Of a stretch of 64,000 nucleotides of DNA, positions 2,524 through 44,817 are shown one piece after another. Origin of the DNA: a virus. Taxonomy: Duplodnaviria > Caudoviricetes. The notes beneath the pieces were generated by a model. It was given only the letters and a program-made list of their open reading frames with translations. It did not search any database and was not told the DNA's origin. The stretch lies in the IMG/VR virus record IMGVR_UViG_2513237360_000007, positions 10,637 through 74,636 of that record. One strand, given 5' to 3'. The position numbers and the translations under genes are program-made. Numbering within the stretch: position 1 is the first letter of the stretch; each line of letters opens with the position of its first letter.

Positions 2524-4698
2524 TCAGGCAGCAGGGCTATTTATTCCCGCTTCATCTTCGTTTTCTTCAAGAATATCATCCACACAATCATCGCAACAAT
2601 CATGGTCACTATTCCAGGCGGAGTCATGTACTAAAGATTCGCAATGCTCACAATGATGAACTTCATTCTGTGGATACCACTCTCCGCTCTCTACCATGCG
2701 GTACCCATCAAGATAAGCGCAACTCGAATTACAGTAACTCCGACCGTCCTCTGTCTCGACTGAATCACCATATATATAATAAAAGGCACCGCAGGAATCA
2801 CATTCACGAAATTCCGGCTCATCTAGTGCGTTGTCACATACGTTTCCATATCCAACTATGTGATTGCCACTGCCAATTTCCCACTCACTATGATAACTAC
2901 AATAGAAGCAACAATTTTCGCAGTACCACTCGCCATCAATATAATGCATATCATCGGTATTATTTTCCTCTTCACATTCACAGCAGATTTCTCTGGCAAA
3001 ACACTGATCACACTCAATTGTTTTTTCTTCCATATGTTCTCTTCCACAGCGGGGACAGATTGGGGCATGTCCAACGCTTATTCTTTTGATATTTACCCCT
3101 CCGTCAGCGTTTTTAAGGTAACTGACATTGCAATCTTTAAAATACAAGTAGTCCGTATAGTGCACCCCATAAGTATCTATTACGTTATTACATTCCGAGG
3201 GTCCTTTCTTGTTTACCCAAATGTTTGGTCGATTCATACAGTCAGATATGACTTTTTGAACTATTTCACGTACTTCTTGATAGAAAGAGTTTTCTCCATC
3301 TGTCGCTTGCGGATAAATACGTCCCTGCACAATCTTATCTTCACCCAAATGGAACATATTCCTGTTGATTTTGGGCTCTAATTCTAATTGATCTCCCGTA
3401 TAAGAACTATCGACCGTGTAGAATACCATACTTGTACCATCAAGCATATATGATAGTGTCCCACCTGAATAGCAGCCCTCATAAGCATGTTCCATACCGC
3501 GCTTGTTCTCCTTATCAATAGTATGGCAACTAGCCCAACTATTCCCAAAAGACATAGTAAAATAATCTATTGGGTGGCAGCTAAGTATTGTATGTCTTGT
3601 GATTTTAAGTGGATTTATTGCGTCTGAATATTGCGCGAACCTTCTCTGATATTCCGGATCCTTGTCGATACCAATAAAGTGGCAAAATTTATTTACAATT
3701 CTTGATGTTTTTTGTCCTGCAACAGCCTTCAATGTGGGGGATATTGCATTTATAACATCGGCCATAAACACATCTATAAACTGATCTTTATAGTTCATTA
3801 ATTGTAGAGAAAAATCTCTTACTTTGCTCAATAAACCTAAAGATTCTGATGTATATAACTCACTGGGGCAACCAGACCAGCCACATAAATGCGCCCGATT
3901 GGCTTCTTCAAATTTATTGACTTTTTCTGTAAAGAAACTATGATTTTTAACACACTCAAGGTAGTAGTCCTTCAGATATAGCCCTCCATGAGCTCTTATA
4001 GTATTGTAGGCGCTAATAATTTTATACATTCGATCTCTGATATCAACGGACTCTTGATAGCTATGGCAACCAATCATGTATTTCTTTCTAATATTCTGAG
4101 ACCATCTGCGGATGTACCCACTAAAGTCTTCTAATATTTTACTGTCGCATATTCTATTATAATCCTCGTCAAAGGCTATTTGATATTTCCCATTGTAATT
4201 AGGATGCCTCGATATCAAAAGAATTAGATCTCCTTTTTTTTCTGCCCATTCATCCAATATTTTATTGCATCCACTAATAGTTGGATGATACTCGTATTCA
4301 TTGAGAAGTGCCATCATCTCCTCGAGCAGCTCATCCCTCCGTTCCTCAGTCAATACAAATTTTTCTCCTGCAACAATCTCCTTCATATATGCATGATCGC
4401 CGCAGGGGAGAGGTACATTCTTTGACAAATCATCATATCCCGGCACTTTCTCCGCATTGGGGTAAATACTGAAAAACTCCTCCTCTGATATTGGATGAAT
4501 CCTGCGAATATCGACCGTATCTATGTAACCAAGATTTTTGCCAAATCGACTAGCTATAATCTCAACGGATACCTGTCCATCACAATCTACCTCTTCATCA
4601 ATCAACCTCAAAAGTGTTCCATGGTCTGATCTAAGACTGCATTCATCTCCTCTATATAAATTTCCTACAGCATATTTTTCATACATAATTTTTTCCAC
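2524..4698 (-). CDS. Phage protein with SWASCH motif and C-terminal Cys-rich repeats
   Basis: FGNSWASCH motif; repeated CxxC units in the last ~180 aa. Confidence 0.7.
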   Translation of the reverse strand: MEKIMYEKYAVGNLYRGDECSLRSDHGTLLRLIDEEVDCDGQVSVEIIASRFGKNLGYIDTVDIRRIHPISEEEFFSIYPNAEKVPGYDDLSKNVPLPCGDHAYMKEIVAGEKFVLTEERRDELLEEMMALLNEYEYHPTISGCNKILDEWAEKKGDLILLISRHPNYNGKYQIAFDEDYNRICDSKILEDFSGYIRRWSQNIRKKYMIGCHSYQESVDIRDRMYKIISAYNTIRAHGGLYLKDYYLECVKNHSFFTEKVNKFEEANRAHLCGWSGCPSELYTSESLGLLSKVRDFSLQLMNYKDQFIDVFMADVINAISPTLKAVAGQKTSRIVNKFCHFIGIDKDPEYQRRFAQYSDAINPLKITRHTILSCHPIDYFTMSFGNSWASCHTIDKENKRGMEHAYEGCYSGGTLSYMLDGTSMVFYTVDSSYTGDQLELEPKINRNMFHLGEDKIVQGRIYPQATDGENSFYQEVREIVQKVISDCMNRPNIWVNKKGPSECNNVIDTYGVHYTDYLYFKDCNVSYLKNADGGVNIKRISVGHAPICPRCGREHMEEKTIECDQCFAREICCECEEENNTDDMHYIDGEWYCENCCFYCSYHSEWEIGSGNHIVGYGNVCDNALDEPEFRECDSCGAFYYIYGDSVETEDGRSYCNSSCAYLDGYRMVESGEWYPQNEVHHCEHCESLVHDSAWNSDHDCCDDCVDDILEENEDEAGINSPAA

Positions 4699-4723
4699 CT
4701 TTCGTCAATACATCCAATGAGCT

Positions 4724-5002
4724 CTAATTTAGTTCCATTACATCTATAACCACATTTTTGTTGATTTCAAAATCAGCAAATTTAACAACAACTCTTGTGC
4801 CGTCAGGTAACTCTGGCGGGTCACTGATTTCTACAGCCTCTCCATTATCCAGGACAATGATTGAGCCCCAATCATAAGCAGTTCCGCATTCAATGCTGAG
4901 GCTCAAAATAGGCTCGGCAGCAAAAGTTTTCGTAGTCAAAGTCCCAATTTGGGCAACAAAAACCACACCCAACGCCAAAAACCTTAGGATCTTATTTGCC
5001 AT
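4724..5002 (-). CDS. Small exported hypothetical protein
   Basis: N-terminal signal-peptide-like hydrophobic stretch; SD AAAGGAG upstream. Confidence 0.65.
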   Translation of the reverse strand: MANKILRFLALGVVFVAQIGTLTTKTFAAEPILSLSIECGTAYDWGSIIVLDNGEAVEISDPPELPDGTRVVVKFADFEINKNVVIDVMELN

Positions 5003-5221
5003 ATTCAGTTATCTCCTTTTGAAAAAGTTGTGACGATTGTCACGAATAATTAGATATGTTAATTTCCAGATAATCCAACCTATTGGTATGATGACATCAG
5101 ATGCTTTGAGCCTAAAGCCCTATTCATTGGATTCCAATATTTGTCCACATCCCTCTGCCCCCTTCCATTCAATGTTTTGGTAAATACCTTTTTTCCAATC
5201 ACAATATCTCCCCGCATACTT

Positions 5222-5368
5222 TTATTTCACCTTGATCCCTGTAATTTCTTCAAAAATTTTCACATCAAAATTAGGGATCTCTTTAATGATATTTTTCTGT
5301 TGGCCAGATAAACTATTCCACCATAACTGACTACGGTCTTTTTCATTAAGTTCTTTCTGATAACCTCC
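5222..5368 (-). pseudogene. Remnant C-terminus of a common Firmicutes phage protein (GGY.KEL...IPNFD..IF.EITGI)
   Basis: Translates as GGYQKELNEK...NSLSGQQKNIIKEIPNFDVKIFEEITGIKVK*, with an apparent frameshift at the QLWW motif and upstream stops; family resemblance from memory. Confidence 0.5.
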
Positions 5369-5535
5369 TAGACCTCTCTATACCTGGTCCGTTTCATATC
5401 AATAAAATTTGTGGGAGTTGTCACATAGAAACCATGTGTTTCAGATTTGAAAATAGACATATATCTCATGTCTTTTTAGTTATATCACTTTTAAAGTTAT
5501 ATGTCAATGTTTTTTCCAAACATTCGTTCTCCTTT

Positions 5536-6486
5536 TTACGCCACAATTGAAATTTTGTTATCAACATAGGCAAATCTGTTACGGCTCCCAAAACGCTCTT
5601 TCAGCAGATCATCAGCATACAGCACACATGCAACCCTATAATTCCGATTTGGATAGGCCAAATGAGCCCGCTCTTTAAATGCCGTGGGCGAACTTTCCCT
5701 TAGCAAGGTTCCAAATATATTAACTATCTTACGTTCTTCCCCATATGCCTGGAAAATGTATTTCATTGTTCTCATGGTATAGGTGGAATAACCAAAGGTT
5801 TCCATATCCCAGCCAGCATGGTGAATCACCTTGAACGCAAATTCCAACCCTTTCGGCCCATTCGTTTTTACAATGTCTAAGGCATCCAGATAGGATTTGA
5901 GATATACCTTTCCGTCTCTCCTCTCCTTTGTTGTTGGACTTATCAAAACACCATACTTCCTTGACAGCGTATCAACTACGGATACAATAGGATCATTCAG
6001 AACAAGGGCTGCCGTATGCTGGTGTATTGCCTTCATTGGGCGTACCTCGTCATACTGTCCGCGGAAAAGCTCCGCTCCGTATCTCTCTATCTCATCATCT
6101 CCCACACTTAAATGGACATTTGCCAGGACATATTCACGCCCACACATCTGTGCAGCTATTACCCTGCCCATCCCCTCACACACATCAAAACTCCCTTTCT
6201 GAGGATTTGGTATGATATCTATATATCCAGCCTTTCTTAGATCAAAGTTCTGGCTTAAGGAGAGAATTTTATCTTCATTCAGAAAATGGATTCTATCGAC
6301 TTGATATCTGGGAAAGTTTAGCATTGTAAGCGGAACTTTAGCTGTCCCTAAAATATCTCGTCCATCTTCCGTTACCATTACATCAACATTTGCCAGCAGA
6401 TCATTCATCCTTTCATGGTTTCCGACCCTGTTAAAATACTCCTCTGCTATTTCATAAATCCTTTTTACCATACTATATCCCTCCAT
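5536..6486 (-). CDS. ParB/Srx-like N-terminal domain protein (DUF6551-like)
   Basis: PRYQVDR and FDVCEGMGRVIAA resemble the ParB-like D-G-x-x-R motif. Confidence 0.6.
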   Translation of the reverse strand: MEGYSMVKRIYEIAEEYFNRVGNHERMNDLLANVDVMVTEDGRDILGTAKVPLTMLNFPRYQVDRIHFLNEDKILSLSQNFDLRKAGYIDIIPNPQKGSFDVCEGMGRVIAAQMCGREYVLANVHLSVGDDEIERYGAELFRGQYDEVRPMKAIHQHTAALVLNDPIVSVVDTLSRKYGVLISPTTKERRDGKVYLKSYLDALDIVKTNGPKGLEFAFKVIHHAGWDMETFGYSTYTMRTMKYIFQAYGEERKIVNIFGTLLRESSPTAFKERAHLAYPNRNYRVACVLYADDLLKERFGSRNRFAYVDNKISIVA

Positions 6487-10203: not shown

Positions 10204-10601
10204 GTAGATTATATATCTACTCTTCTTTCCTGTTCGGAAACTGTTATCCCCTTAAATAAATATACTATATATTTCTATATGGCTTACAGGTTAATATTAT
10301 TATATATACTCGCTGCTAATATATTATTATAAACTGTAGTAGCAATAACCTGTAAGACATATACACTGTGATGTTCAATGGTATCAGTTTTCCATATTCT
10401 TATCTGAACATCACAGGACTATCTCATTTAAAGATTACTTCTAATCTTTTAATATAAGAGAACAGAAGCATATCTTTTTTCTTTTCATGGTATTATAAAG
10501 CTTCTGTTCTCTCTCTGGCTCACAAAAAATCTATTAACCATATTTTTATAAAATCATGTGAGCCAGAATATGTTATTATAAACTCTTATAAAAAAAGAGT
10601 T
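10204..10601. repeat. Tandem array of inverted repeats (hairpins/cruciforms)
   Basis: Stems 10204-09/10215-20, 10283-93/10346-56, 10366-77/10405-16, 10430-37/10442-49, 10457-69/10500-12, 10514-24/10557-67, 10581-87/10595-601. Confidence 0.85.
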
Positions 10602-10870
10602 ATTATATATAGTGTTTATAATAACATAGTATATATTATTATATATAAACTCTTTATATATATAGTTATATATAATAACTCTTTATATATATTATTATAT
10701 ATAATATATAAGGAATAAGGCGAAGCATAGCGCCGATCCGGCCAAAACCATTATAATATCCAGCATTTTCTGCATTTCATTTTCTTCGAGAGGATCTTCC
10801 ATCCCGCGTCCCTCTTTAGATCTTATACGCGATTCCCAATAAATGTAAATACCCACGGTACAAGGAGGTA

Positions 10871-10972
10871 ATGCTTATTTTTTGCAAAGAATGCCAGCTT
10901 AGAACAGCGCAGTATTCGTTTCAACAATCAGCAGTAAGCAACAGGAGGAATTACCAATACCCAAACATTTAA
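10871..10972 (+). CDS. Putative 33-aa leader peptide (MLIFCKECQLRT...) overlapping the RNAP start
   Basis: AGGAGG SD and ATG; CxxC motif; not in ORF track because it is short. Confidence 0.45.
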   Translation: MLIFCKECQLRTAQYSFQQSAVSNRRNYQYPNI

Positions 10973-13713
10973 TATCTCAACGGTATGTTTTTAAAATCCA
11001 TTCATCCCGGTTACGCCGGGCGAAATGGGATCTGCAGCTCTCGCTTGATCGTGCCAGAAAAAACAAAGAATTGATTGCTCTAAGCGAAAGCCAGATGATG
11101 CGGTTCATTGATGAGATCAACGGGATCACTAATCCCGAACTACACATATCATCAATACGCAGGGAGATAAAAAGGCTTAGGCGGGACAAGGATATTATAA
11201 GGTCCCGGCCAAAGGTTCAGCGGCTCTATGAAGAACTGGATCACTATCAGTTCAAAAAAGATTATGTGTGTGTCGTGATAGATAACGAAAAAGATTATTA
11301 TCACATATACAAGAGGGGATTCAAAATAAATGGCACAACATTCCGCAGGCTGCTGGGGACTACCGGCGGTATCAAGACAAACACTATCGTTTTTGTAAAC
11401 GAGCTGCTGCTGCCAGAATTAATGACAAGGATCAATAACGGGCGCGATCCTCGGAAGGAGTTTTCTCCAGCCAAACTTGAAGCATACATTGCATTAACAT
11501 GCAGCTCCTCCACTCCGGTTAGTATGCCGCGTGGCATTGTAGTTGTGCACGATTGTATTACACACTTCAAAGATGATGTGATCGAACTGGATGATACCGG
11601 AGTTGATCAACCAAAGATGCGGTTCCTCAAAAACCACGAGATTGAACTGAACAATAGCGATGGCTACGGGCTCGGGATGCCGTCCCTTATGGAACAATGG
11701 GGGATAGACATTGGAGAAGACTTTATCCTTCCTGCTTGTGTTATACGAAACTCATTCTGCAAAGGAGCTGTCGTATGTGTGGATTTTCAGCAATTCGCTT
11801 CAGACCATGGCCTGACAACCATACAAGATATCTGGGGGAACACGCATAGCATATTTGAAGTAGCACTTATCTTAACAGAATCAATGCTTAAGCTCTGGGA
11901 TTCCTACTCCTCCATTGACGATTATCTGGAAAACTGTAAAAAGAATCATTATACTTTTGCCATTACGAAGTCATCTGAGTCCGAACTTGAAAATATGAGA
12001 ACTATGAACTATCAGTTTTTACAAAGCTATGATTTTACAGACGAAGAAATTGACGAGTTGATTGCCCCTACAGTAAATGAGATACAGGACATCCTCTCCG
12101 GAGATTACAGGAAAACCATACTCTATGTAAAGGGCATCGGCCTGAATGATGATAATGTACAACACCTGGACACCTCTTTCGCAACTGCTCTGATGATTGA
12201 TAAGGAAATGCAGAAGGACCCGTTTGTACAAGATCAGATACGCGGGATGATCCGCAAGAGAATAGACAATGCAAAAGTTGGAGTCTTAAATGTTCCAGCA
12301 AACTATTCTATCATCTGCGGGGATCCGTACTCCCTTTGCCAATCCATGTTTGGCCTGGAAGTGACCGGGCTGCTCCAGAAGGGGCAGATCTATTCAAAAT
12401 ACTGGATTGATCATGGTATAAACAGAATAGCCAGCTTCCGGGCGCCTATGACATCACACAATAATATCAGACTCTTAGATGTTGTCCATAACAGCGAAAT
12501 GGATGAATTCTACCGTTATATTACCACTCCCACCATTTTTAATAGCTGGGACACCTGCGCCCAAGCCATGAATGGGTTCGACTTTGATGGTGATTGTGTG
12601 ATCAACACATCCCTGCCATTAATAGTAAATAACACGCACCAGCTGCCGGCCATATGTTGCGTGCAGCGAAAGGCTCCAAAATGTGTCCCCACTTCTGATG
12701 ATCTGATGGCATCCAATATCAAAAGCTTTGGAAATGCGGTTGGCCCCATTACCAATAAAATCACCTCAATGTATGATGTTAAAGCACGGTTTTCTCCCGG
12801 CAGCCGAGAATACAACATCATGGACTATAGGATAAAATGCGGTCAGCTTTATCAGCAGAACGCTATTGACAAAAGCAAGGGAATTGAAGCGCGTCCAATG
12901 CCCGCAAAGTGGTATAATTGGATTTCCAATAAGGTAACTCGTACTCAACCATCAAGAGAAAAGAAATATAATGTACTCAACCGTTATCTCCTGGCCGACA
13001 AAAAACCATATTTCATGAAATACATATACCCCTCATCAAAAGCGGAATATGAAAAATATCTTAAATCAAATAGTGATAAGTGCATACTAAGGTTCTCGCT
13101 TACGCTGGATGAGTTGATCAGCAAGCCCACCCATACGGCAGAGGAAGAACAATTTTTAAAGGCTTATTACATTGGCCTTCCTCTGGGTATGGCCCCCTGC
13201 ACATTAAACCGTATATGCTGGAAAATAGAAAGTATCTTTGACAAGTATTATTTACCGCTGAAGGATAATTTTGATTACTCGATCCTGAAATCAGATGTAG
13301 AATACACCCCTTATATGTTTGGGAAAATCAAAAGGATCTATGATGAGTATGTATCAGAACTGCGGGAATACAGTAAAGTATGTGCCAAAGAAAGGATTAA
13401 AGATTATGACAGCAAGACACTAAAATTCACTTTACAGGAAAACTTCAGAAGGCACTGCGTGGAAGCATGCCCAAATGCCGACATGCTATGCAATATCATC
13501 CTGGATATATGTTATACCAAAAATGGTTCTAAAAGATTCGCCTGGGACATGTGCGGTGAAACCATTATCCAGAATCTATTGAAACGAAACAACTATAAAA
13601 TAACATACCCTACGTATGATCAGAACGGAGACATTGAATTTGGAGGTAACACATATAGGATGACAACCACAGATATAAAAGTTGCTATAGATATTGAGGA
13701 TACCATTCATTGA
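10957..13713 (+). CDS. yonO: YonO-like single-subunit DNA-dependent RNA polymerase (two-barrel, RdRP-like)
   Basis: FRAP and catalytic GFDFDGD motifs; position upstream of head genes as in SPbeta; frame extends 38 codons upstream of the track start to an ATA codon 8 nt after AGGAGG (10943-48). Confidence 0.9.
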   Translation: MPKHLISQRYVFKIHSSRLRRAKWDLQLSLDRARKNKELIALSESQMMRFIDEINGITNPELHISSIRREIKRLRRDKDIIRSRPKVQRLYEELDHYQFKKDYVCVVIDNEKDYYHIYKRGFKINGTTFRRLLGTTGGIKTNTIVFVNELLLPELMTRINNGRDPRKEFSPAKLEAYIALTCSSSTPVSMPRGIVVVHDCITHFKDDVIELDDTGVDQPKMRFLKNHEIELNNSDGYGLGMPSLMEQWGIDIGEDFILPACVIRNSFCKGAVVCVDFQQFASDHGLTTIQDIWGNTHSIFEVALILTESMLKLWDSYSSIDDYLENCKKNHYTFAITKSSESELENMRTMNYQFLQSYDFTDEEIDELIAPTVNEIQDILSGDYRKTILYVKGIGLNDDNVQHLDTSFATALMIDKEMQKDPFVQDQIRGMIRKRIDNAKVGVLNVPANYSIICGDPYSLCQSMFGLEVTGLLQKGQIYSKYWIDHGINRIASFRAPMTSHNNIRLLDVVHNSEMDEFYRYITTPTIFNSWDTCAQAMNGFDFDGDCVINTSLPLIVNNTHQLPAICCVQRKAPKCVPTSDDLMASNIKSFGNAVGPITNKITSMYDVKARFSPGSREYNIMDYRIKCGQLYQQNAIDKSKGIEARPMPAKWYNWISNKVTRTQPSREKKYNVLNRYLLADKKPYFMKYIYPSSKAEYEKYLKSNSDKCILRFSLTLDELISKPTHTAEEEQFLKAYYIGLPLGMAPCTLNRICWKIESIFDKYYLPLKDNFDYSILKSDVEYTPYMFGKIKRIYDEYVSELREYSKVCAKERIKDYDSKTLKFTLQENFRRHCVEACPNADMLCNIILDICYTKNGSKRFAWDMCGETIIQNLLKRNNYKITYPTYDQNGDIEFGGNTYRMTTTDIKVAIDIEDTIH

Positions 13714-15617: not shown

Positions 15618-15691
15618 GCGAATATTGAGTAATGGCTATCTCCCTTGCCTTCCAAGCAAGTATATTGCTGGTTCGAATCCGGTTATTCGCT
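15618..15691 (+). tRNA. tRNA-Gly(TCC)
   Basis: GCGAATA/TATTCGC acceptor, CTTGC-CTTCCAA-GCAAG anticodon arm, TTCGAAT T-loop. Confidence 0.85.
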
Positions 15692-33936: not shown

Positions 33937-36900
33937 GTGGCTAATAAAGGAGTAGATATTGAATTTAAAGGAGGTTTTAATGATGATGATATTATTAAAG
34001 CTCTCCGTAAGGTAAATGGCGAAATAGATGAGACCAAGAAGAATGCTGAAGAACCAATTAAAGTTAATCTCGGTGGATTTGTAAAAGAATTCACAAAAGA
34101 GTTTGATGAAATTGATCGTATTATAGCTAAAAGAAAAGCTAATATTGATAAAAGGGTCATCAATTACATCCCCAAGATCCAATTCAACTTGCGTGATGTT
34201 GAGTTATGGGAAGAAACACAAAAGAAAATTGATCGGCAGATAGCAAAAGCCAGAATGAACTATGATCTTCCATCATTACAGACCGATTCATTTTCTAAGC
34301 AGCTAATCGCCAGAGAGAAACTTCTTGCTAGACTAGGCGAAAACACATCAAAACATAAAGCCTTAAAGCAAGTATGGATGGATGATGGACCATCTATAAG
34401 CAAAGCAAGAGCCAATATTGAGCTACTGCAACAACAAATAGCTTTAAAAGAAAAAATTCTACAAATAGATACAAAAGTAAAACCCTTTCTTCCAAAAAGC
34501 GATTGGTCTACAAAATTTAATGGATCCGATGTAAATGCGCAAAAGGAAGCATTAAAAGAATCAAAAAGATTAATGGCTGATGAACTCTATACTGCTGCTG
34601 ATAAAGAAAAAGAAAATATATTGGTAGCGTTAAAGGATTATGAAAAATCTGCTAACAAAATAATGAGAGAAGGCAAATTCGATGAGTTTGTTTTCCCGGA
34701 TCTTATTAGTAAATTTAATGCTATCGAATCATCTGCTCAAGACTATTTAATGAAGCTCGGCCTCATTAAAGGAAAGACTTCCGAAACGCTAGAAACTTCA
34801 CATAAGCAACTTACTTCATCTGCTCAGTTATTTGACAAATATGGGGCTACTGCCGAAGAAGTATTCGTGAAGATTGACAAAATATTTTCTCAGGCTAATG
34901 ATAGCGATGATGGCTTTTATGGATTAAGCAGTAGGAGCATTTCAGACCTCACAAAGATGATGGCTTTACTGGAACACTTTTCTGAGGGTGATTTATCGAA
35001 GCTTTCTTTAGAAGGTGATGAGTTCTTTGGCTTCCAAGATGAGCTAAAAGAAATCCAGAGTTTCTTAAAAGATGAATTTACAGTTGACGAATCATTAGAA
35101 GAAGTATTTAAATCCACAATAGATCAACTCAATCAATTGGAGTCTACTGCTGAGGAAGCTGTTCCTGCTATTGAAAAAGTGGAAAATTCCCTTAATCCAG
35201 ATAGTGATGAATCTAAAATAGAGGCAAAAACTGACGCCATTGAAAATTTAACCGAAGCAATGCAGCGCCAGGCAGAATCTGATGAAGCTTTATCAAAAAC
35301 ATCATCATTATCCGATGATCATATCACTAATATAGAAAACACCACGGAAGCCATTAACCAATTGAATGAAGCTGAAAAAGAAAGGGATAAGTTAGATGCC
35401 CCCACCGCTTCTATCGATTCCACGTTGGATACTGATATTGATAAACTTGAGAAAAAAACTAAAGCTACTAAAGAGTTAGATGATGTACAGGAAAAGCAGA
35501 AACAAAATGAAATTGCGCTCCAAAAAGAACTCTTATTCTTAGACGAACGAGAGAATTCATATTGGGAGACACGGGAAAAGCTTTTAAAAGATGGAGTTGC
35601 ACAGCAAGAAGCTTATGCTAACTTAAGGAAAGAACAAGAAAATAATTATAACCAAAGTTGGATTATAGCAGAGACTAACAGGATGTTATCATCCTATGCT
35701 GCGGCTGAAGGTAAAGTAATTGGCTATGGGCGTGCAGTTCAAAGTGCCAGTGATAAGGCTAATCATCTGGCGACTGCCTGGGAGAATGGTAGCATATCTG
35801 CAAAGAAATATGAAACAGAGATAGCAAAAATCAATAGTGAATTAAGTAATAAAAAATATAACTTAACCGGCGCAGAGACCGGCGTCTTTTCGACTAATCC
35901 ACAGAACATAATTATACTGGAAAAAGAGATGCGCGCTCTTGCTCTGGCAACTGAAGGTATTATTCCAGAAAGTATTGCATTCAATGAACAATCAAAAAGA
36001 ATGTCATATGAAACAAAAGATGCTGCTGGAAATATTAGTAAGTATTCTATTGCCATCAATTCACTTAATGACGAACTTCTTCGTTATCAAACAAAGACTA
36101 TTCAGGCCATAGGTCCAACACAAGAATTTTTCAACTTTTTATCTCAGAGTTTTAAGAAGGTATCGTCATATATCTTTAGTTTTGGGTCTTTTTATAGATT
36201 ATGGGCAGAACTAAAACAGGGAATTACTATCATTCGTGACATTGATGATGCCATGACTGAACTCAAGAAGGTCAGTGATGAAACTGCCTATACATACACT
36301 AAGTTTCAAAAGCAGGCAGCTGCCGAAGGGCGCGATGTTGCCCAAACTACGAGCGACATGGTTCAGGCTTCGTCTGACTGGAAAAAGATGGGATACAATT
36401 TACAGGAATCCCTTAATCTCGCAAAATCATCATCACTCTATGTTAATGTTGGTGACGATGTTAACATAACCGAGGCTACATCAGACTTAGTTTCTACCAT
36501 TAAAGCGTTTAATATGAACGCAGATGATTCAATAGGCATTGTTGATCGTCTAAATGCTGTATCAAATAATTTTGCTGTCACATCAAAAGATCTAGGAAAT
36601 ATTCTAAATCATTCCTCATCCTCTCTCGCTGCCGCCAATACTTCAATAGATAAAACAATAGCAATGGGCGCTGCCATGAATGAAGTTCTACAAGATAGTT
36701 CTACTTCTGGTAGCACATTGAAAATATTGTCCATGAGGCTACGCGGAGCAAAAGTAGAATTAGAGGCTGCGGGTGAATCAACTGAAGGTATGGCAGAATC
36801 CACATCAAAACTTCGCGAAAAAATCAAAGCCCTGACGAACATAAATGGATCTGGCGGATTTGACATAATGAAGGATGATAATACATTCAAAGATGTATAC

Positions 36901-37293
36901 GAAATGATGGATGGAATTGCTGAAAAGTGGAAAGGTATGGATGATATATCCAGAGCTGGCTTACTTGAATTAATCGCAGGTAAGATGAGAGCTCAAGGAG
37001 TATCTGCGCTTTTAAACAATTGGTCCGAAGCCGAAGCCATACTAAAAACTTCCTTGGATTCATCTGGATCAGCAGCCAAAGAAAACGAAACCTATCTTGA
37101 TTCAATATCTGGTCGCGTTAAGCAATTACAGGCTCAGTATCAAGAGCTTTGGCAGACCACCCTAAATGACGATTCAATCAAATTCTTTATTGAACTTGCG
37201 ACAAGTGTCACTAAAGTTGCAACTGATATGGGAGGACTACTTCCTATAGTTGCAACCTTAACGACATTATTAGCTGGTATCAAATATGCGGGT
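33937..37293 (+). CDS. Tape measure protein, exon 1 (1119 codons)
   Basis: Long helical ORF with TP901-type TMP core (IDDAMTELKKVS...LKILSMRLRG); ends GCG GGT at the predicted 5' splice site. Confidence 0.88.
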
Positions 37294-37836
37294 AAAGTAA
37301 TTCGTAACCGTGACAACGAATGTGCCCTTCTCATTAATGCTGCGTAATATACTCCCACAAAGTAAACGATGAGAATGTCCCGTCACGTAAATAAATAACT
37401 AAGGGACGCATAGGCGTATAATATGCTGGGAACTCCCCCAAACACCTCTTCACCGAAACTCACCGAAAGGTGTGCTGTACAGCCGGGGCCGTGAGGCAGA
37501 AAAAAGTAAGAGGTTCTTGTTCAGAACAAAATTCTGTTCAATACACCAGTCCAATATTTTCTGGTCAAGGGAGGGTCAATAGGTAGCCCATATGGGTGAA
37601 AGCAGGCTGTTTCCTAAGTGCGTAAGCATATGGAATCGCCCCAGAGACTGACAAGGCCGGTCTGCCCGCAGGGATAATTGCGTGCGGATTCAAAATACAG
37701 TCCAAATGCCGAAGGAAATTGGATAACACTTCGGTCGGAGTAGTGCTCCGTGTGGTACTCTTCTTCTATTGCCTGGTGCAACGGGTTATCCCGGTGGCAA
37801 TCGAAGTGCTCTTAAATGAGTGATATTTTCTAAAAA

Positions 37837-38052
37837 TTATAAAAGGAAATAAAACATTAAAATAGCCAAAAATATAAAGATAATAATCCAAAGTAATGAT
37901 TCTCCAGTGGGCTTCTGTCCCTTCACTTTTTTATTCTTCGTCTGTTTTAGAGAAAACCTCTTGGGTGTCTTTTCTCTATCAACACCTCTTGCCTGATCAA
38001 AAAGATAGTGATCTCGGGAGTCGATTTTATTATCATGGTTCATGTCAAACAT
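37837..38052 (-). CDS. Intron cargo: 71-aa membrane-anchored protein
   Basis: EF-hand-like DMNHDNKID motif, C-terminal TM helix, AGAGGG SD. Confidence 0.7.
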   Translation of the reverse strand: MFDMNHDNKIDSRDHYLFDQARGVDREKTPKRFSLKQTKNKKVKGQKPTGESLLWIIIFIFLAILMFYFLL

Positions 38053-38079
38053 AACTTCAATTCCCTCTACTACATATTA

Positions 38080-39222
38080 CTAAATAATCAGTTCTACAAT
38101 ACCTTCATACAAAGTTCCGCTTTCTAAAATAGCCTCTTTAATTTGTGTGCTAGTGGTCAGAGGAGGAAAACTGGCGAAATCACACTGAGAATATTCCACA
38201 TTGTTGTTAATACAGTAATTTTTTTTATTACAATAGCAATCAATATTTTTTGACTCACAATTATATTTGTTTAGTCTAAACGTTTTTGGGGGGATTTTGT
38301 TTGCATCAAGTCGCTGTTTACAATTCAGTGAATTGTAATATCTATATAGAGGAAAATATTCATTGTCAAGATTATATAATGCAATTTTCTCTTCTAGATC
38401 AAGTTTTTTATATTGCCTATATTTCTCTTTAACCCACTCATCAAGGCGATAGAGATCCTTTGACCAATCTCGAAATCCCTCCATTATGCTCTTATGAATT
38501 CCACTATTTATATCATCCTCTAACCTCTTGTACCAATCTGCCTGTTTTAAAGGCACAATGCCAAAATCAAAATTTGCAAAATTATAAAAGTCAATCTCTA
38601 AGTCAGGCATTTTTCCATTTCTGATTCTTTTTTGATTTTTAAAAAACCAATCTTTAGAAAGGGTATTCTTTAATTCCGTTGGGTGGATAGGATTCCTTTT
38701 ATTCCTCTCTCTAAAATCATTTATTTCATTTATTCCGATAATAGCTTTTTCTATTGTTGAAAAATAATAATGTGGAAACTTAATAATAACTGACCTAAGT
38801 TGCAAAGTACTATTTAATTTAATCCTATATAATCGTAACATATTAAGAGATGTACTATAACTCCGCTTAGCATTATTGTATGAGTCCAAGTAAGCTGAAT
38901 TATCCTCCAAGTATATACATTTTTCATTAATATACTTTATTGTTTTTTTTATCTCATCAATTTCTTGTCGCAATATTTGAATTGATTCCTTTAAAAATGC
39001 AATCTTTTTATCTATAGCAATATACTTTAGTGGGTTATTTAATACATCAGCTTTGTTGCCAGAATTCCTAGCACGTTTACTCTTGGTCCTTAATTCCTGT
39101 ACTTGCTTTTCAATTTTCTCAATACTGTTATATAATATTTGTAAATCATCATAAGATGCCTGTATGTCCCGTCTTTTTTCCACTTTAGCAGTTTGAATCC
39201 ATTTAAACTGTTCCTTTGGCAT
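38080..39222 (-). CDS. Intron cargo: 380-aa hypothetical protein (coiled-coil N-terminus, Cys-rich C-terminus)
   Basis: AAGAGG SD, low-GC long ORF; no endonuclease motif recognised. Confidence 0.8.
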   Translation of the reverse strand: MPKEQFKWIQTAKVEKRRDIQASYDDLQILYNSIEKIEKQVQELRTKSKRARNSGNKADVLNNPLKYIAIDKKIAFLKESIQILRQEIDEIKKTIKYINEKCIYLEDNSAYLDSYNNAKRSYSTSLNMLRLYRIKLNSTLQLRSVIIKFPHYYFSTIEKAIIGINEINDFRERNKRNPIHPTELKNTLSKDWFFKNQKRIRNGKMPDLEIDFYNFANFDFGIVPLKQADWYKRLEDDINSGIHKSIMEGFRDWSKDLYRLDEWVKEKYRQYKKLDLEEKIALYNLDNEYFPLYRYYNSLNCKQRLDANKIPPKTFRLNKYNCESKNIDCYCNKKNYCINNNVEYSQCDFASFPPLTTSTQIKEAILESGTLYEGIVELII

Positions 39223-39324
39223 ATAGTATATTTACCTCTTAATCATTCTATGCAAAAAGTATTTGTATCCCAACCAATTGCATCAAAATTATAGCCTATT
39301 TCATTTCTCTCATAATATCTTTAA

Positions 39325-39504
39325 CTAATCTATCTCTTGATAATATTCGCTCCATACATTTCGCCAAGTAATCGTTCTGGTAATTTCATCAAAAAAATTA
39401 TTATTATTCAACACGGTATGTTTTAAATACGCAGAACACTCTTCTGCTATTTTTATTGGATCTTTCTTTTGATCTAATGCCAACAAATAATTATAGATTA
39501 CCAT
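39325..39504 (-). CDS. Intron cargo: 59-aa hypothetical peptide (MVIYNYLLALDQ...)
   Basis: ATG overlaps the upstream stop (ATGGTAA); below ORF track cut-off. Confidence 0.4.
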   Translation of the reverse strand: MVIYNYLLALDQKKDPIKIAEECSAYLKHTVLNNNNFFDEITRTITWRNVWSEYYQEID

Positions 39505-39875
39505 TCATATCCACAATTATCACAGTGAAACTGACGTTTCACTTTCTGCGAAAATATCCCAAAAGCCAGTACCGATCCTGCCTTTGATATCTCTGATATT
39601 TTATGAACATTTGTGCTTGAACAAGTTGGGCAACGAACAACATGTTCTTTTTTATATTCATTGCGCAATCGCATATCATTACTATTTTCAAAGGAGATGT
39701 ATTTCTCAACTATAACCCTTGCTTCATCAGGGCTACATCCTCCGACTTCGCTAATTCTTTGTATTAACCTTTTTCTTTCATGAACACTATTACTTTTCCG
39801 AATTTCAGTAAAAAGCGAACTACTTTTTTGCAAAATTTTGCGTTCATTTAAAGTATATTTTTGAGATACCATCAT
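39498..39875 (-). CDS. Intron cargo: zinc-ribbon protein
   Basis: CPTCSSTNV...GSVLAFGIFS...HCDNCGYEW; GAGGGGAGGGG SD. Confidence 0.85.
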   Translation of the reverse strand: MMVSQKYTLNERKILQKSSSLFTEIRKSNSVHERKRLIQRISEVGGCSPDEARVIVEKYISFENSNDMRLRNEYKKEHVVRCPTCSSTNVHKISEISKAGSVLAFGIFSQKVKRQFHCDNCGYEW

Positions 39876-39901
39876 TATTTCCCCTCCCCTCTTTTTAACC
39901 A

Positions 39902-39930
39902 ATTATAACATATGAATATATGCAATGCAC
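39902..39930 (-). promoter_or_regulatory. sigmaA-type extended -10 promoter for the antisense cargo operon
   Basis: On minus strand GTGCAT-17 nt-TATAAT with TG at the extended -10 position. Confidence 0.65.
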
Positions 39931-39969
39931 CTGCTATTTCATATATGTATGGCTACCTACCACATTGTG

Positions 39970-42900
39970 ACATTCGAATTAGTTGGGGAAAAAATAAATG
40001 GAATCAAGGCCGCCGTCACATCATCATCATCTCTAAAAAACATAACAAATGAACTCTTAGAGCTGACAAAAGATATGACTGTCCAGAAAACAATGGAATA
40101 TTTGTCTTATGCCCAAGTCAATAAGCAACTGGCCGCCAGGATACTATATTCTAAGGGATTACGGGCAGAACAGCTCAAGGAAGCCATGTCTACCTATCAA
40201 ATAGCTACAGCAACAGGAATACTTGGTACAGCACAAAAAGTAACGTCTGCTACAACAGTACTGTTTTCCAGAACAATTGTCCAATCCAAATTCCTGCTCC
40301 AAGGTTTATGGGCTACCCTAATGGCCAACCCGTTAATCCTAGTTGTCGGCTTAATATCAGCAGTTACTCTGGGAGTTACAAAATGGAAACAGGCTCAAGA
40401 AGAATTACGCCAGACTACAGCGGATGCAGCAGCCGAACTAGAAAACTCATCAAAAGAAATTGGCACTTATGCGGATAGATATAAGGAACTTCATACAGCT
40501 CTTCATGATGCAAAAGATAGTGAAGAAGAAACATACAAAATTAAGAGTGATCTATTAGCACTTCAAAAAGAATTAAACGAGAAATACGGTGATGAGTATG
40601 GGAAAATCAATCTCGTCACTGATGCTTATAGAGATCAGACGGAGGCTATTCTAGCTTACAAGCGTGCTGCCAGCGAGAAATATTTAAATGAGAATCGCTT
40701 AGGTATTAATGATGCCAAGCAAAAAATGACTGAAATCAATACCTTCCAATTGGCAGATATGATTTCATCAAAATCCAGTTCTGGAATATCCATTAAAAAT
40801 CTAGCCAAAAAGCATGGTATAAAAATCGCGGAAAATGAAGAGTATGGATTGTTTAGTCTATACATTAAAGCAGACGCTACTCAAGCCAAAGAAACAACAA
40901 ATAGTTTCATGACTGACTTGAGCAAGATGCAAGGCAGATTTAATGATAGTGCCGTAGAAAATGTACTGGATTCTTCCAGCCGGGTCATGAAGAACCTTCA
41001 GGATGATTTCTTCAATCTGTATGGAGACCAATTCCAAGAAGCACTATTGGCTGAAGTCCAAACGGACTATGGACGGGCTGATAATGTCCTCTCTCAAGGA
41101 TATAGTGATGCCACTGCCGCGGTAAATGAATACAATGAAGCATTACTAAAAAGTTCTAATCCGTATGATGACAAAGCCGTTACTGAAGCGTATGAAAACT
41201 TGCAGATCATCCGAGCTTCTATAGAAGAAAATTCCAGTGCATGGGATGGATACGAGTCTGTTATTAGTGATGTATTTAGTGCTGCTGATACAAGACTTAT
41301 CGATTTCAATAATCTCATTGGTTCCAACAAAGAGGGGATCGGGGATTTAGTTTCTGAAATCAAGGATTTGAATTTGTCGGATGTGGACTTACAAGCTATG
41401 TCGGATAATGGAGCAAATGGTGATATCTTTGATCGGTTATCCGCAAAAGCAAAACGGTATCAAGTTAATGTTGGAGAGCTGATATCATTATTAGTTCAAC
41501 TTGGTGTTGTACAGAGTACAGTATCCAAGCAGGAAATTGTTAAGCCCCAAACCAAAGCCGAAGCAATCAGTGCCGTAAACGCTCTTACTGATGGTTTTGA
41601 AGAATTGGATAAGATTTACAAAAGCCTCAAGGGAAAAGATCCGTTTGACTTTTCATTGCTTGATAATAAAAATTTCAAGGATACATTTGGCGGACTCGGC
41701 AAAAGCTACACGGACTTCGTAGAACAAATAGCAAGTTCTCCTAAAGATATTGCTGCTTGTCAAAGTGCTTTTAATGACTTGATCACCACATGGCTTGAAA
41801 GCACCCACATCTTAGATGATGTTAATGAAGATACTGCGGGCGTAACCGTGGCAATGCTTAAAATTATGGGTGTTGCAAATGCCGAAGAATTGGTAATGAG
41901 CCATCTCGCCGATGCTCATGAATACGCAGCGCTTGAGAAGAAATTCAATGCTGAGATGTCAGCTAATCTTGAGGGAGCCACTGCCAGCGAGATTAATAAA
42001 ATTTTTGATGAAGCAGATGTTGTTGACGAGGCAAAACAAGCGATGGCTGGATTTGCTCTGCAAAAAGAAATTGCCAATGGAATATCCCTTGATACCTCTG
42101 CAGACATTGAAAACTTACTTGCACTCGTTGGAATAATCGGTTCTGCTAATACTGCATTAAAAGCCTTAAATACATTACGACAAGGCGGCGATGTTGGCGG
42201 AAATATTGGCGGTAAGGAAGGCTATGACTATCTTGTTCGACAGGCACAGCTTGAAATTGAAGAAGCTTTAAAGAAGGCTGCCGAATATAAAGGAAAAGGC
42301 AAGGTCAATTACATTGGTGGTAATGAATCCAACAAAAGTGGCTCAAAAGGGAGTAAGCCTAAAAAGCCAACAGAATTTGATGCAGCTGCGGAATCAGTTA
42401 AAAATCTAAAAGCCCAAATTGACTCCTTAAATGGCGTACTTGAAAATACGAAGCCTTATGATCAGCAGCTAAGAATTCTTAATCTCATTGTTGAAAAACA
42501 GAAGGAATACTTTGATGCGTTAAAAAAGCAGGATGAATTTTACAATGGAGCATACCAGCAGTCCCTCTCTTCTCTACCTCAAGAATGGCAAGATAGGATT
42601 ACCGGCGATGATAACTTTTCCATTGATGAGGTTCCTGAATCCATAAAAGATGCTGTCACAGAAGCTCAGGGATTGAAAGATAAATGGGTTGCTGTAAAAC
42701 AAGAGATCCAAAAAGCAAACGGTGAATTGGATACGACCAAGCAAAAGACGCATGATTTAGCTCAAACAAAGTTAGATAATGAAATTGGTCTTCTTGAGAA
42801 TAAAATAACTGATATCCAAAATAAAATGGACGAAGCTGAAGCCATGGGCTTGCAATCCACCAAAAAGCAGTATAAGAACTTAATCAGTCTTTCAAAACAG

Positions 42901-44817
42901 GCTGCTTCCTACCAACAGAATAAGCTTCAAGGATATATGGCAAATCTAATCGCCATGGAGGTTGCCGGAGAAACAAACACCGACCAGTATTACGAAACCG
43001 CTGAAGCAATCCAGAATTGCGAAAATGCAATATCCCAATGTGCTCAGAATCAAGCCAAATGGAATAAGGCTATGTTGGAACTTCCCATTCAATATTTAGA
43101 GAAGGCCAATGATGAGCTCAATGACCAGCTGGAGGAGTTACAGGACAAGCAGAACGATTATGACAGTGCTATAAATGGTGTCACCAGCCATTTGCAAGAA
43201 CAAATTGACGCCCAGCAAAAACTAAGGGATGAAGCAGAAAAAACATCGCAGGCTCAGATCGATGCTATTCAGGAACAAATTGATGGCCTCCAGGAATCAA
43301 ACGATAAGCGTAAGCAACAGCTAGAATTAGAGCAAAAGCAATATGATCTTGAACGGGCTAAGAATCAAAAGACAACTAAAGTCTTCCGTGAAGAAGCTGG
43401 CGGCTTTATATATGAAGCTGATCAAAGCGCTATTCGTGATGCCCAAGATGCTTATGATGATGCTCTCTTGAACAAGCAATTGTCTGATCTGGAAGACAAG
43501 ATTAAGGACATTGAGGATTCACGCGATGCATTGTTAGATTCTTATGATAATGAAATTGACCGGCTTCAAACAATTATGGATTCATGGAATGATATTACTG
43601 ATGCAATCCAACGAGCTAAAGATATGGCTATGGCTAATTCTATCTTCGGCGCTGGATGGCAAGATCGTGTTACCAGTGGCGATACAAGTGATTTAGAAGA
43701 CATAACCGGCAAGTATGATAAAAATGATCGTGATCGCTCTTGGGTGGAAGAACAAATTGAAGCCAATGAACGGCTTATCCGTGAAGTTGAACGATATGTA
43801 TCAGCTTGGCAGATGGGAGAAATCAGCATCCGGGAGGCCCGGGAATCTATTAATGATATTGTAGGAGATATTGCTCCTGAAATTGAGGCAAACGATGAGC
43901 GTGTCAATAGTATTTCAACTTACCAGGATCAATGGACCAATGCTAATGATAGGGTAAGCGAAAACATTAGCGCCCTCAATGATACAACTGCTAATAACAG
44001 TGCCGAGGTAAATGCAACAAACCAACGGCGTGATGCTGCATTACAGTATGCTGATCAATGGGCCAATAATGTTCTTTCCGTTGGAAGTTCGCTATCTAAC
44101 ATTACTGAAGCCAACGCCGCTGCCACAAATGCTGAAGGTTTATTTCTTGATGCCAGAATAAGCAAATTAAGTCTTTTCAAAGATGTTTATGCCGAAATGG
44201 CTTCTGTAATTGGAGACAAATGCAAAAGCATTGTTGATGCATGCAAAGAAGCAGAACGAGCATTACGTAGTTTGGATAAAGCAGAGAATGGTGGTGGATC
44301 CTCAAGCGGTGGTCATTGGGACTCTTCCGGTGCGTCCGGGGGCCCAGGCGTATACGCTGATGGAATATTAAATGGGCGTCTTGGTGGACGTAGCGAATCT
44401 GAAAAAGAAAAGATGCTTAAGTATCTGACTACACATGATCTTAAAAATGGAGAAATTCCTATTATTGGTCATGAAAATGAAGTCGTCTTGAACCCTGATC
44501 AGCAGGAACAGGCCATTCAGAATACGGAGAAATTGGCTGACGTTTCAGGTGCCCAACTCATATTTGACGCCGATAACATTTCCTCATTCTCAGGAATGCT
44601 TAGCAATAATGCTATGTTTACTAAAGGAAATATCTTCAAAGGTATCTCAACTCTCCCACCGAATGTCTCCAACAGTAATGTAAGACACGGGGATATAAAG
44701 GTTGAGATAGCTAATGTGACATTGCCACGTGTAAAAGATAGTGATAGCTTCCTAAAATCCATGACTGATGGCAGCATGCAATCTGCTATTCAACAACAAC
44801 TTTATAAACGAAGATAG
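39970..44817 (+). CDS. Tape measure protein, exon 2 (1615 aa)
   Basis: Long coiled-coil TMP C-half; no SD before the track ATG at 39925; in frame with exon 1 after splicing. Confidence 0.88.
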   Translation, partial: TFELVGEKINGIKAAVTSSSSLKNITNELLELTKDMTVQKTMEYLSYAQVNKQLAARILYSKGLRAEQLKEAMSTYQIATATGILGTAQKVTSATTVLFSRTIVQSKFLLQGLWATLMANPLILVVGLISAVTLGVTKWKQAQEELRQTTADAAAELENSSKEIGTYADRYKELHTALHDAKDSEEETYKIKSDLLALQKELNEKYGDEYGKINLVTDAYRDQTEAILAYKRAASEKYLNENRLGINDAKQKMTEINTFQLADMISSKSSSGISIKNLAKKHGIKIAENEEYGLFSLYIKADATQAKETTNSFMTDLSKMQGRFNDSAVENVLDSSSRVMKNLQDDFFNLYGDQFQEALLAEVQTDYGRADNVLSQGYSDATAAVNEYNEALLKSSNPYDDKAVTEAYENLQIIRASIEENSSAWDGYESVISDVFSAADTRLIDFNNLIGSNKEGIGDLVSEIKDLNLSDVDLQAMSDNGANGDIFDRLSAKAKRYQVNVGELISLLVQLGVVQSTVSKQEIVKPQTKAEAISAVNALTDGFEELDKIYKSLKGKDPFDFSLLDNKNFKDTFGGLGKSYTDFVEQIASSPKDIAACQSAFNDLITTWLESTHILDDVNEDTAGVTVAMLKIMGVANAEELVMSHLADAHEYAALEKKFNAEMSANLEGATASEINKIFDEADVVDEAKQAMAGFALQKEIANGISLDTSADIENLLALVGIIGSANTALKALNTLRQGGDVGGNIGGKEGYDYLVRQAQLEIEEALKKAAEYKGKGKVNYIGGNESNKSGSKGSKPKKPTEFDAAAESVKNLKAQIDSLNGVLENTKPYDQQLRILNLIVEKQKEYFDALKKQDEFYNGAYQQSLSSLPQEWQDRITGDDNFSIDEVPESIKDAVTEAQGLKDKWVAVKQEIQKANGELDTTKQKTHDLAQTKLDNEIGLLENKITDIQNKMDEAEAMGLQSTKKQYKNLISLSKQAASYQQNKLQGYMANLIAMEVAGETNTDQYYETAEAIQNCENAISQCAQNQAKWNKAMLELPIQYLEKANDELNDQLEELQDKQNDYDSAINGVTSHLQEQIDAQQKLRDEAEKTSQAQIDAIQEQIDGLQESNDKRKQQLELEQKQYDLERAKNQKTTKVFREEAGGFIYEADQSAIRDAQDAYDDALLNKQLSDLEDKIKDIEDSRDALLDSYDNEIDRLQTIMDSWNDITDAIQRAKDMAMANSIFGAGWQDRVTSGDTSDLEDITGKYDKNDRDRSWVEEQIEANERLIREVERYVSAWQMGEISIREARESINDIVGDIAPEIEANDERVNSISTYQDQWTNANDRVSENISALNDTTANNSAEVNATNQRRDAALQYADQWANNVLSVGSSLSNITEANAAATNAEGLFLDARISKLSLFKDVYAEMASVIGDKCKSIVDACKEAERALRSLDKAENGGGSSSGGHWDSSGASGGPGVYADGILNGRLGGRSESEKEKMLKYLTTHDLKNGEIPIIGHENEVVLNPDQQEQAIQNTEKLADVSGAQLIFDADNISSFSGMLSNNAMFTKGNIFKGISTLPPNVSNSNVRHGDIKVEIANVTLPRVKDSDSFLKSMTDGSMQSAIQQQLYKRR

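Follow-up and report, generated by a model that had tools for sequence, protein, structure and literature searches.

Group I introns have been described at three sites of the tape-measure protein (TMP) gene in prophages of the Bacillus cereus group, namely, TMP-IVS1, TMP-IVS2 and TMP-IVS3 (Tourasse and Kolsto 2008, PMC2504315), and several of them, in which the homing-endonuclease gene is missing or incomplete, are spread passively by the phage (PMC2504315). The present analysis concerns a putative group I intron at positions 37294-39969 of the window, i.e., the whole stretch of 64,000 nucleotides (nt) analysed here, which is part of a 74.6-kb provirus record of IMG/VR (IMGVR_UViG_2513237360_000007). 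It is very probable that this intron splits the TMP gene of an SPbeta-like prophage. Like the B. cereus introns, it lies in the long TMP gene of a siphovirus prophage of a Firmicute, with P1 and P10 adapted to the target site (PMC2504315), and since such introns are published, a TMP gene split by a group I intron is not new in itself (PMC2504315). The two groups differ in that the family of the window occurs in SPbeta-like phages at one conserved site, is 1-5 kb in size and has a hypervariable multi-gene cargo with a conserved antisense zinc-ribbon gene, the copy in the window being undetected by Rfam.

The nearest analogues in layout are the IStrons (CdISt1 and BcISt1; PMC4227781; bioRxiv 10.1101/2023.11.20.567912), which likewise have a 5' ribozyme and kilobases of coding DNA before the 3' splice site. 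The region of open reading frames (ORFs) may be enclosed by a short inverted repeat in IStrons, and possibly also in the window. The transposase genes that define IStrons (IS200/IS605 or IS607) are absent here, the ORFs lie on the opposite strand, and a single homologous site is occupied instead of many. The introns of T4 (td, nrdB, nrdD), SPbeta (bnrdE/F) and Twort (orf142) resemble that of the window in interrupting a phage protein gene whose essential product requires, or in the window would require, splicing and in having an in-frame stop soon after the 5' splice site. However, they belong to subgroup IA with P7.1/P7.2, and one of their peripheral loops contains a gene of the GIY-YIG, HNH or LAGLIDADG type on the sense strand, whereas the window has only 8 nt between P7 and P8, a P5abc-like extension and no endonuclease domain that could be found.

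The genomic region corresponds to the tail module of an SPbeta-like siphovirus prophage, and YomU and YomW-like genes sit upstream of the TMP gene in relatives. ORF1 (Table 1) carries PF10145 (PhageMin_Tail) at residues 794-1014 (76.8 bits, Pfam cut-off 33.2) and shares 27-37% identity with TMPs encoded by Brevibacillus phage Sundance, Enterocloster phage PMBT24 and Bacillus phages of the SPbeta-like group; its final 400 residues align with the middle of these single proteins of 2,300-2,500 amino acids (aa). The domain, the position of the gene and the very long, helical predicted product are those of TMPs of the TP901/SPbeta YomI type. No close relatives of ORF1 were found in a genome-contig collection. 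The frame of ORF2 opens only at 39916, and ATG first occurs in it at 39925, with no preceding Shine-Dalgarno sequence. ORF2 had no protein-family match and its N-terminus gave no match in a tblastn search of phages, but a collinear, although weak, match to the C-terminal parts of uninterrupted TMPs was observed. These TMPs, 2,300-3,300 aa in size, align to ORF1 as far as 37272-37335 and then collinearly to ORF2, the 5' exon being homologous to approximately residues 250-800. The alignments support the assignment of ORF1 and ORF2 as predicted halves of one TMP.

The insertion site is a Gly codon immediately past a hydrophobic segment of the TMP. Joining of 37293 to 39970 is in frame (...IKYAG/TFELVGEK..., the slash marking the junction here and below) and gives 1,119 + 1,615 = 2,734 aa, and spliced translations are collinear with uninterrupted TMPs. 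Intron-less alleles at the aligned site read ...AAC TTA GGT/ACA ATC... and ...AAA GGT/ACG GTT..., and their G/T junction is the one that splicing would make in the window. A preliminary description, prepared from the letters of the window, had placed the stop of the TMP frame at 37347 and a downstream ORF without a Shine-Dalgarno sequence at 39925; every coordinate was correct on checking, and the joined product of 2,734 aa proposed there was re-derived, uninterrupted homologues reading GGT/AC at that point.

The U.G pair in P1, the omega-G and the P10 pairing that are characteristic of group I splice sites can all be located at the predicted boundaries. U37293.G37324 is the wobble at the 5' splice site; all P1 pairs were invariant among seven sequences (the window and six close relatives), and the motif GGU/AAA...(A)UGCCC was common to at least 10 sequence clusters at the same TMP site. 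The predicted 3' exon strand of P10 is an exact 7-bp reverse complement of the guide, and ACATTC was invariant in the six relatives though the codons downstream vary. Between 39916 and 39990, only five in-frame positions follow a G, and the chance of a 7-nt complement falling at one of these five is approximately 3 × 10−4; since the guide is fixed beforehand as the bases beside the P1 strand and only five positions are available, the P10 of the window is not a chance match. A common rule could be formulated (an in-frame GGT as the 5' site, the guide just 5' of GCCC, and the omega-G followed by the guide complement), which opened a long in-frame ORF2 with a 7-bp P10 in the window and in related loci L055 and L056 (guide TTAATAT), and with a 6-bp P10 in L009 and L017 (guide ATTGTAT), in L074 (AGAATTT) and in L004. 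The five close relatives L089, L090, L091, L092 and L095, all with a complete locus, obeyed it with a P10 of 6-7 bp. The P1 with its U.G pair, the P10 and the omega-G proposed in the preliminary description were confirmed, and the same rule holds elsewhere with different guides. Intron lengths were 1,057, 2,676, 2,867, 3,568, 3,641 and 4,502 nt, with a maximum of 4,983 nt. Since the majority of these lengths are not multiples of three, only exact excision restores the frame.

The first approximately 520 nt of the insert represent a conserved structured RNA with group I features. This part was 80% identical among the seven introns, with an invariant stretch at 37596-37658, and the similarity stopped abruptly near 37812. 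In related loci, recognisable P, Q, R and S elements followed straight after the stops. In the covariation set of the window and six close relatives, the proposed structure comprised 132 pairs, of which 27 had compensatory changes, and was 97.6% paired; when the partners were slid by 1-3 columns as a control, 35-43% were paired and 1-4 pairs were compensatory. Compensatory support was found for the inner P2 stem, P5, P5a, two hairpins of the P5 extension, P8, P9 and P9.2 (Table 1). The P and Q elements delimit a predicted P4-P6 domain, although RNAalifold offers an alternative pairing for P4 and P6, and the in-frame stop of ORF1 (37345-47) falls in the P2 loop. Across 13 relatives, 96.7% of the P7 cells were paired and four of the seven pairs had compensatory changes, while the G-C pair of the guanosine site and the neighbouring A-U pair never varied. 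The pair at the guanosine-binding position of the window is G37646-C37702, and the P7 geometry is the same as in the wider family. With a bulged nucleotide, the conserved G-C pair and flanking J6/7 and J8/7, this P7 is predicted to bind guanosine. Of the elements in the preliminary description, the P7 has its bulged A and its G-C pair in the canonical position, and the P8 and the P9 are present as well. All three GNRA hairpins listed there also exist, and the GAAA and GUGA/GCGA/GCAA loops are kept in relatives, but the GUAA loop is not conserved as GNRA.

Several alternative pairings were discarded. A P3 candidate at 37480-86/37657-64 (7 bp, one bulge) has its 5' strand deleted in L094 and L095, and for another (GGAC/GUCU) nucleotides 37659-61 were assigned to P8 by covariation. 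The long-range pairs offered by RNAalifold (37413-16/37637-40 and 37421-26/37626-31) are invariant and depart from the topology of group I introns, and no counterpart to them exists in L004. It should be noted that in L056, compared with L055 (flanks 94% identical), an extra insertion of approximately 370 nt lies in the ribozyme right after the Q element, in the P6 region (10400-10790), and moves the R element from 10415 to 10789; it marks a possible second insertion point in this intron family.

An alignment-based scan of IMG/VR returned 80 TMP relatives. In approximately 27 of them, the protein runs 600-2,600 residues past the homologous point, and in approximately 55 (12 sequence clusters) the frame stops 4-83 codons past it; of the related TMP loci that were retrieved, about two thirds were split at this site. 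The close relatives, whose N-terminal TMP halves were 70-91% identical to ORF1 in a protein search, all had the architecture of the window (contigs L089-L095). Split genes with intact exons were found in the six close relatives, which come from different samples, and in dozens of phage contigs that are more distantly related. The relatives were mostly from gut-type metagenomes.

Between approximately 37812 and 39969 (roughly 2.1 kb), every long ORF lies on the minus strand, four ORFs in all. When these were compared with Pfam, PHROGs and PADLOC, nothing beyond generic zinc-ribbon noise was returned, and no homing endonuclease of the LAGLIDADG, GIY-YIG, HNH, His-Cys or PD-(D/E)XK type was detected by the same three resources. 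Endonuclease and transposase Pfam domains were likewise not found in ten cargo ORFs from four relatives, nor were IS200/IS605 or IS607 transposase or TnpB domains in these ten or in the four ORFs of the window. The 380-aa cargo protein matched only itself among 5.8 billion proteins; in the closest relative (TMP 91% identical) the cargo is wholly different, and the 380-aa protein is unrelated to it. By the orientation and content of its ORFs, the cargo is a minus-strand cassette and not a homing-endonuclease gene. In the intron of L090, a sense-strand cargo ORF (10421-10984) matched PF00227 (proteasome subunit; 30.1 bits, cut-off 22.4), and a neighbouring antisense ORF gave a weak Phage_integrase match.

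The zinc-ribbon gene adjoining the 3' splice site encodes a helical N-terminal domain and a C-terminal CPxC...CxxCGYEW ribbon. Its homologues occupy the same place on the minus strand in nearly all related introns, and in the intron of L095 this gene is the sole ORF. For the common family member P0136 (369 blocks of the assembly index), the order TMP-N, cargo, antisense ribbon, TMP-C was observed in all three contigs inspected. The family has more than 1,500 members and is found outside introns too: a 168-aa member lies in a bacterial chromosomal context (L099-L101, about 3450-5540), showing that introns are not the only setting of the C-terminal ribbon module. A 481-aa protein without a Pfam family directly follows that member. 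Pfam matches were weak, generic and below the curated cut-offs, with PF12760 (IS1595) in 11 of 13 members and PF07282 (ribbon of TnpB/Cas12f) in four of 13, and an Atlas search returned only unnamed zinc-ribbon clusters. The AlphaFold2 model (pLDDT 77) reproduced the helical domain and the C-terminal ribbon; Foldseek found nothing in the PDB at E ≤ 0.001, and the best VIA-align results (Z = 6.1, under the level regarded as meaningful for the tool) were helical domains of DNA-binding type, with no nuclease, the structural search effectively covering the helical domain only. A candidate antisense promoter precedes the gene, its GTGCAT lying 17 nt upstream of TATAAT, and an equal spacing (GTGCAA-17-TATAAT) was read by eye in L090, L091 and L095; this promoter is omitted by the consensus promoter scan because its -35 element is weak.

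According to the proposed mechanism, the late transcript would carry a ribozyme of approximately 520 nt at the 5' end of the intron, in which the 5' splice site is fixed by P1 (GGGU/GCCC with U.G). Once the first step is complete, the guide CGAAUGU would release AUUCG, with which it pairs in the intron, and take up ACAUUCG of the 3' exon instead (P10), G39969 would move into the guanosine pocket of P7, and the exons would be ligated to give a single TMP of 2,734 aa. Unspliced RNA would yield the 1,136-aa fragment only, ORF2 being without its own ribosome-binding site. We infer that the intron splices itself and that the cargo is expressed and has a role of its own; tail assembly would then depend on splicing, and, at 0.15 nm per residue, a tail of roughly 400 nm may reasonably be expected.

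How the distant 3' splice site might be brought to the core was also considered. P10, the omega-G and a possible P9.0 (AAA after P7 with the U-rich bases before the omega-G) are conserved in relatives. In all six relatives, the P9.2 loop GGUGCAA is complementary to UUGCACC located 21-40 nt before the omega-G, and it may be speculated that the pairing of this loop with UGCACC closes off the cargo. Complements of 6-7 nt carry no significance alone: in the subfamily of the window the best of them did not exceed those of shuffled sequences (p about 0.7), and for L009, L017 and L055 the p values were borderline at about 0.04-0.05. The 3' arm also coincides with the -35 position of the antisense promoter. 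Core-versus-tail duplex folding was indistinguishable from shuffles. A perfect 9-bp complement (UAGGUAGCC/GGCUACCUA, 37580-88/39951-59) between the P5 extension and the last 20 nt of the intron is absent from relatives and probably due to chance.

A number of results weigh against a functional group I intron. The core and the 3' splice site are 2.2 kb apart, with only a speculative helix to close the gap, and the provirus record is rated 45% complete. P1, P2.1, P3, P4, P6 and P7 never vary in the close relatives, and therefore covariation is silent there. The tentative P3, which is invariant and the only pairing with canonical topology, is the weakest element of the core, and the minimum-free-energy fold was no better than that of shuffles (z = -1.1), the folds of both strands being indistinguishable from them. 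No group I match was returned by Rfam for the window at the gathering threshold or for stretches of 3.1 kb or 526 nt at E ≤ 10, nor by an RF00028 genome search. A P7-P8-P7' covariance model built from 13 classical relatives found the right coordinates in the core of the window with 4.9 bits and E = 6.7, which is not significant; the failure of P8 to align across subfamilies makes this a weak model. With an nhmmer profile of the classical core, the best match in the window was 37407-37516, inside the intron (E = 0.11), where the P element and the motif "GNRA hairpin + AGAAA-AA" are aligned.

The 50-bit gathering threshold of RF00028, below which the window falls, is a criterion of detection and not of mechanism. 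Rfam at its thresholds also gave no group I match in L004, L008 or seven related loci, and when short stretches of relatives with the intron at the same site were used, full-length RF00028 alignments of 38.0 bits (L074, E = 3 × 10−8) and 44.7 bits (L022, E = 3 × 10−10) were obtained, both under the cut-off. The insert had no blastn match in 50,697 phage records, and an exact 20-mer of the R element had three matches only in IMG/VR, in high-GC coding regions and attributable to chance. Overall, the split TMP gene, both splice sites and the group I identity put forward in the preliminary description are supported by the homologues, the compensatory changes, the recurring splice rule and these sub-threshold alignments.

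The absence of an Rfam match and the weak P3 would also be expected of a tape measure encoded by two genes, in which the ribozyme is a decayed relic, the insert is a moron island and the halves, translated separately (ORF2 from ATG 39925 or 39949), assemble non-covalently. In-frame ATG codons do occur upstream of 39970, and gene callers annotate at least two genes in every relative. Nevertheless, such an arrangement is very unlikely: the core shows compensatory changes and near-total conservation despite unrelated cargo, P10 and the omega-G are kept, down to the synonymous positions of ACATTC, a Shine-Dalgarno sequence is absent, relatives do not share a conserved start, and the intron-less homologues are single proteins. 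That the insertion inactivated the TMP gene of a defective prophage, so that this copy makes no tail, is very improbable, since the exons are fully open across 1,119 and 1,615 codons and inactivating insertions would not keep the ribozyme and the frame logic; the incompleteness of the provirus record and the orphan 380-aa cargo gene would fit a defective copy, but the recurrence of the architecture with intact exons in close and distant relatives would not.

An IStron or another transposon, in which a group I ribozyme is joined to a DNA transposon and moves by transposition, with the zinc-ribbon gene as a remnant or a new form of the transposase/TnpB, would account for the layout, in which the ribozyme is 5' and kilobases of ORFs lie ahead of the 3' splice site (PMC4227781), and for the weak matches to PF12760 and PF07282. 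These matches, however, are generic and below the curated cut-offs; neither the cargo of the window nor that of four relatives contained a TnpA, TnpB, IS607 or other transposase domain, the ORFs are antisense, and all copies occupy one homologous TMP site and are not scattered, which makes this explanation extremely improbable. An intein, ribosomal bypass and a group II intron were rejected, as no intein, reverse-transcriptase or domain V signatures were found and the intron lengths of relatives are mostly not multiples of three.

Table 1. Predicted features of the split TMP gene and its intron (positions are those of the window; a slash separates the two strands of a helix)
Feature	Position	Strand	Description
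ORF1	33937-37347	+	1,136 aa; putative upstream half of TMP
TMP 5' exon	33937-37293	+	1,119 codons; PhageMin_Tail; final codons GCG GGT
Group I intron	37294-39969	+	2,676 nt: ribozyme, cargo and 3' end
P1	37290-37327	+	Exon GGGU (37290-93) and A37294 with U37323 and GCCC (37324-27)
P1 extension	37301-05/37316-20	+	
Guide segment	37317-23	+	CGAATGT; serves P10
P2	37328-35/37368-75; inner stem 37338-45/37357-64	+	Inner stem with 4 compensatory pairs
P2.1	37377-81/37403-07	+	Invariant
P3 (tentative)	37413-17/37654-58	+	GGCGU with AGGCC; 3 G-C, one G.G mismatch, 1 U-A
P4	37424-27/37601-04	+	UGCUGGGAA (P element) and AGCAGGC (Q element); invariant
P5	37433-37/37569-73	+	Compensatory changes
P5a	37444-50/37508-14	+	Compensatory changes
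GNRA hairpins	37462-71 and 37488-97	+	An A-rich stretch comes next
Hairpins of the P4-P6 domain (37424-37640)	37517-41, 37545-65, 37586-97	+	
P6	37605-14/37632-40; P6a 37619-28	+	P6 invariant
P7	37644-50/37698-703	+	G-A-GACUG/CAGUC-C; A37645 bulged
J7/3 and P3'	37651-58	+	
P8	37659-70/37679-90	+	12 bp (12-13 bp); 6 compensatory pairs
J8/7	37691-97	+	
P9	37708-14/37729-35	+	4 compensatory pairs
P9.1	37736-40/37746-50	+	
P9.2	37764-73/37796-805; inner stem 37782-93	+	4 compensatory pairs
P9.2 internal loop	37774-81	+	UGGUGCAA; invariant
Candidate cargo-closing pairing	39926-31 with 37775-80	+	UGCACC with GGUGCA (P9.2 loop); both arms conserved in 6 relatives
Cargo ORF	37837-38052	-	71 aa; hydrophobic C-terminal segment
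Cargo ORF	38080-39222	-	380 aa; coiled-coil N-terminus, Cys-rich C-terminus; orphan
Cargo ORF	39325-39504	-	59 aa; no family match
Zinc-ribbon gene	39498-39875	-	125 aa from ATG 39875; 134 aa from TTG 39902
Candidate antisense promoter	39902-39930	-	Extended -10 TGnTATAAT 39910-39902; -35 GTGCAT 39930-39925
Omega-G and P10 strand of 3' exon	39969; 39970-76	+	ACAUUCG; exact reverse complement of 37317-23, 7 bp
ORF2	39925-44817	+	1,630 aa; putative downstream half of TMP
TMP 3' exon	39970-44817	+	1,615 codons and stop

Three further observations were made outside the TMP locus. A tRNA gene was identified in the early part of the provirus (15618-15691, 50.7 bits), the sole Rfam match in the window at the gathering threshold. 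In a related phage contig, the tail genes are followed downstream by a RAGATH-18 RNA (L025:18249-18312), whose 69.4 bits exceed the gathering score. Upstream of the tail module of L095 (L095:1-150; Logan contig ERR9999216_1104), a 592-aa gene running off the start of the locus has a precomputed Pfam match to PF05183 (RdRP, RNA-dependent RNA polymerases of the eukaryotic type), which is unusual in a tailed phage.

A literature search returned no description of the ribozyme/cargo/antisense-gene architecture of this family, of the conserved antisense gene, of the hypervariable multi-gene cargo or of the prevalence at one SPbeta-like TMP site. What looks new is the family architecture, in which the ribozyme is followed by a hypervariable cargo and then, beside the 3' splice site, by a conserved zinc-ribbon gene in antisense orientation that has a candidate promoter of its own. 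A broader and tentative proposal is that a large family of group I introns fixed at one TMP site of SPbeta-like phages might serve as a protected cargo bay, in which accessory genes turn over rapidly between the ribozyme and the antisense zinc-ribbon gene, are expressed in the prophage in the direction opposite to the late operon and are spliced out of the TMP message; the zinc-ribbon protein could then be a novel type of intron-associated factor of regulation, maintenance or mobility that replaces a homing endonuclease.

Gene callers and Rfam miss the intron, and therefore thousands of phage contigs are probably annotated as carrying a truncated TMP and an unexplained giant ORF; in such contigs, inferences on tail length or taxonomy drawn from TMP length would be wrong. 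The 3' splice site that the ribozyme must reach is as far as 4.5 kb from it, a problem for which IStrons appear to use an inverted-repeat stem, and the relatives of 1,057-4,502 nt form a natural series for testing the use of a distant 3' splice site. The zinc-ribbon protein is a small and very common phage protein with a defined genomic address. For the phages themselves, RNA catalysis would be required for a late structural gene that is essential, and the 1-5 kb inside the TMP gene would be free to gather unrelated accessory genes, forming a hotspot hidden in a coding sequence.

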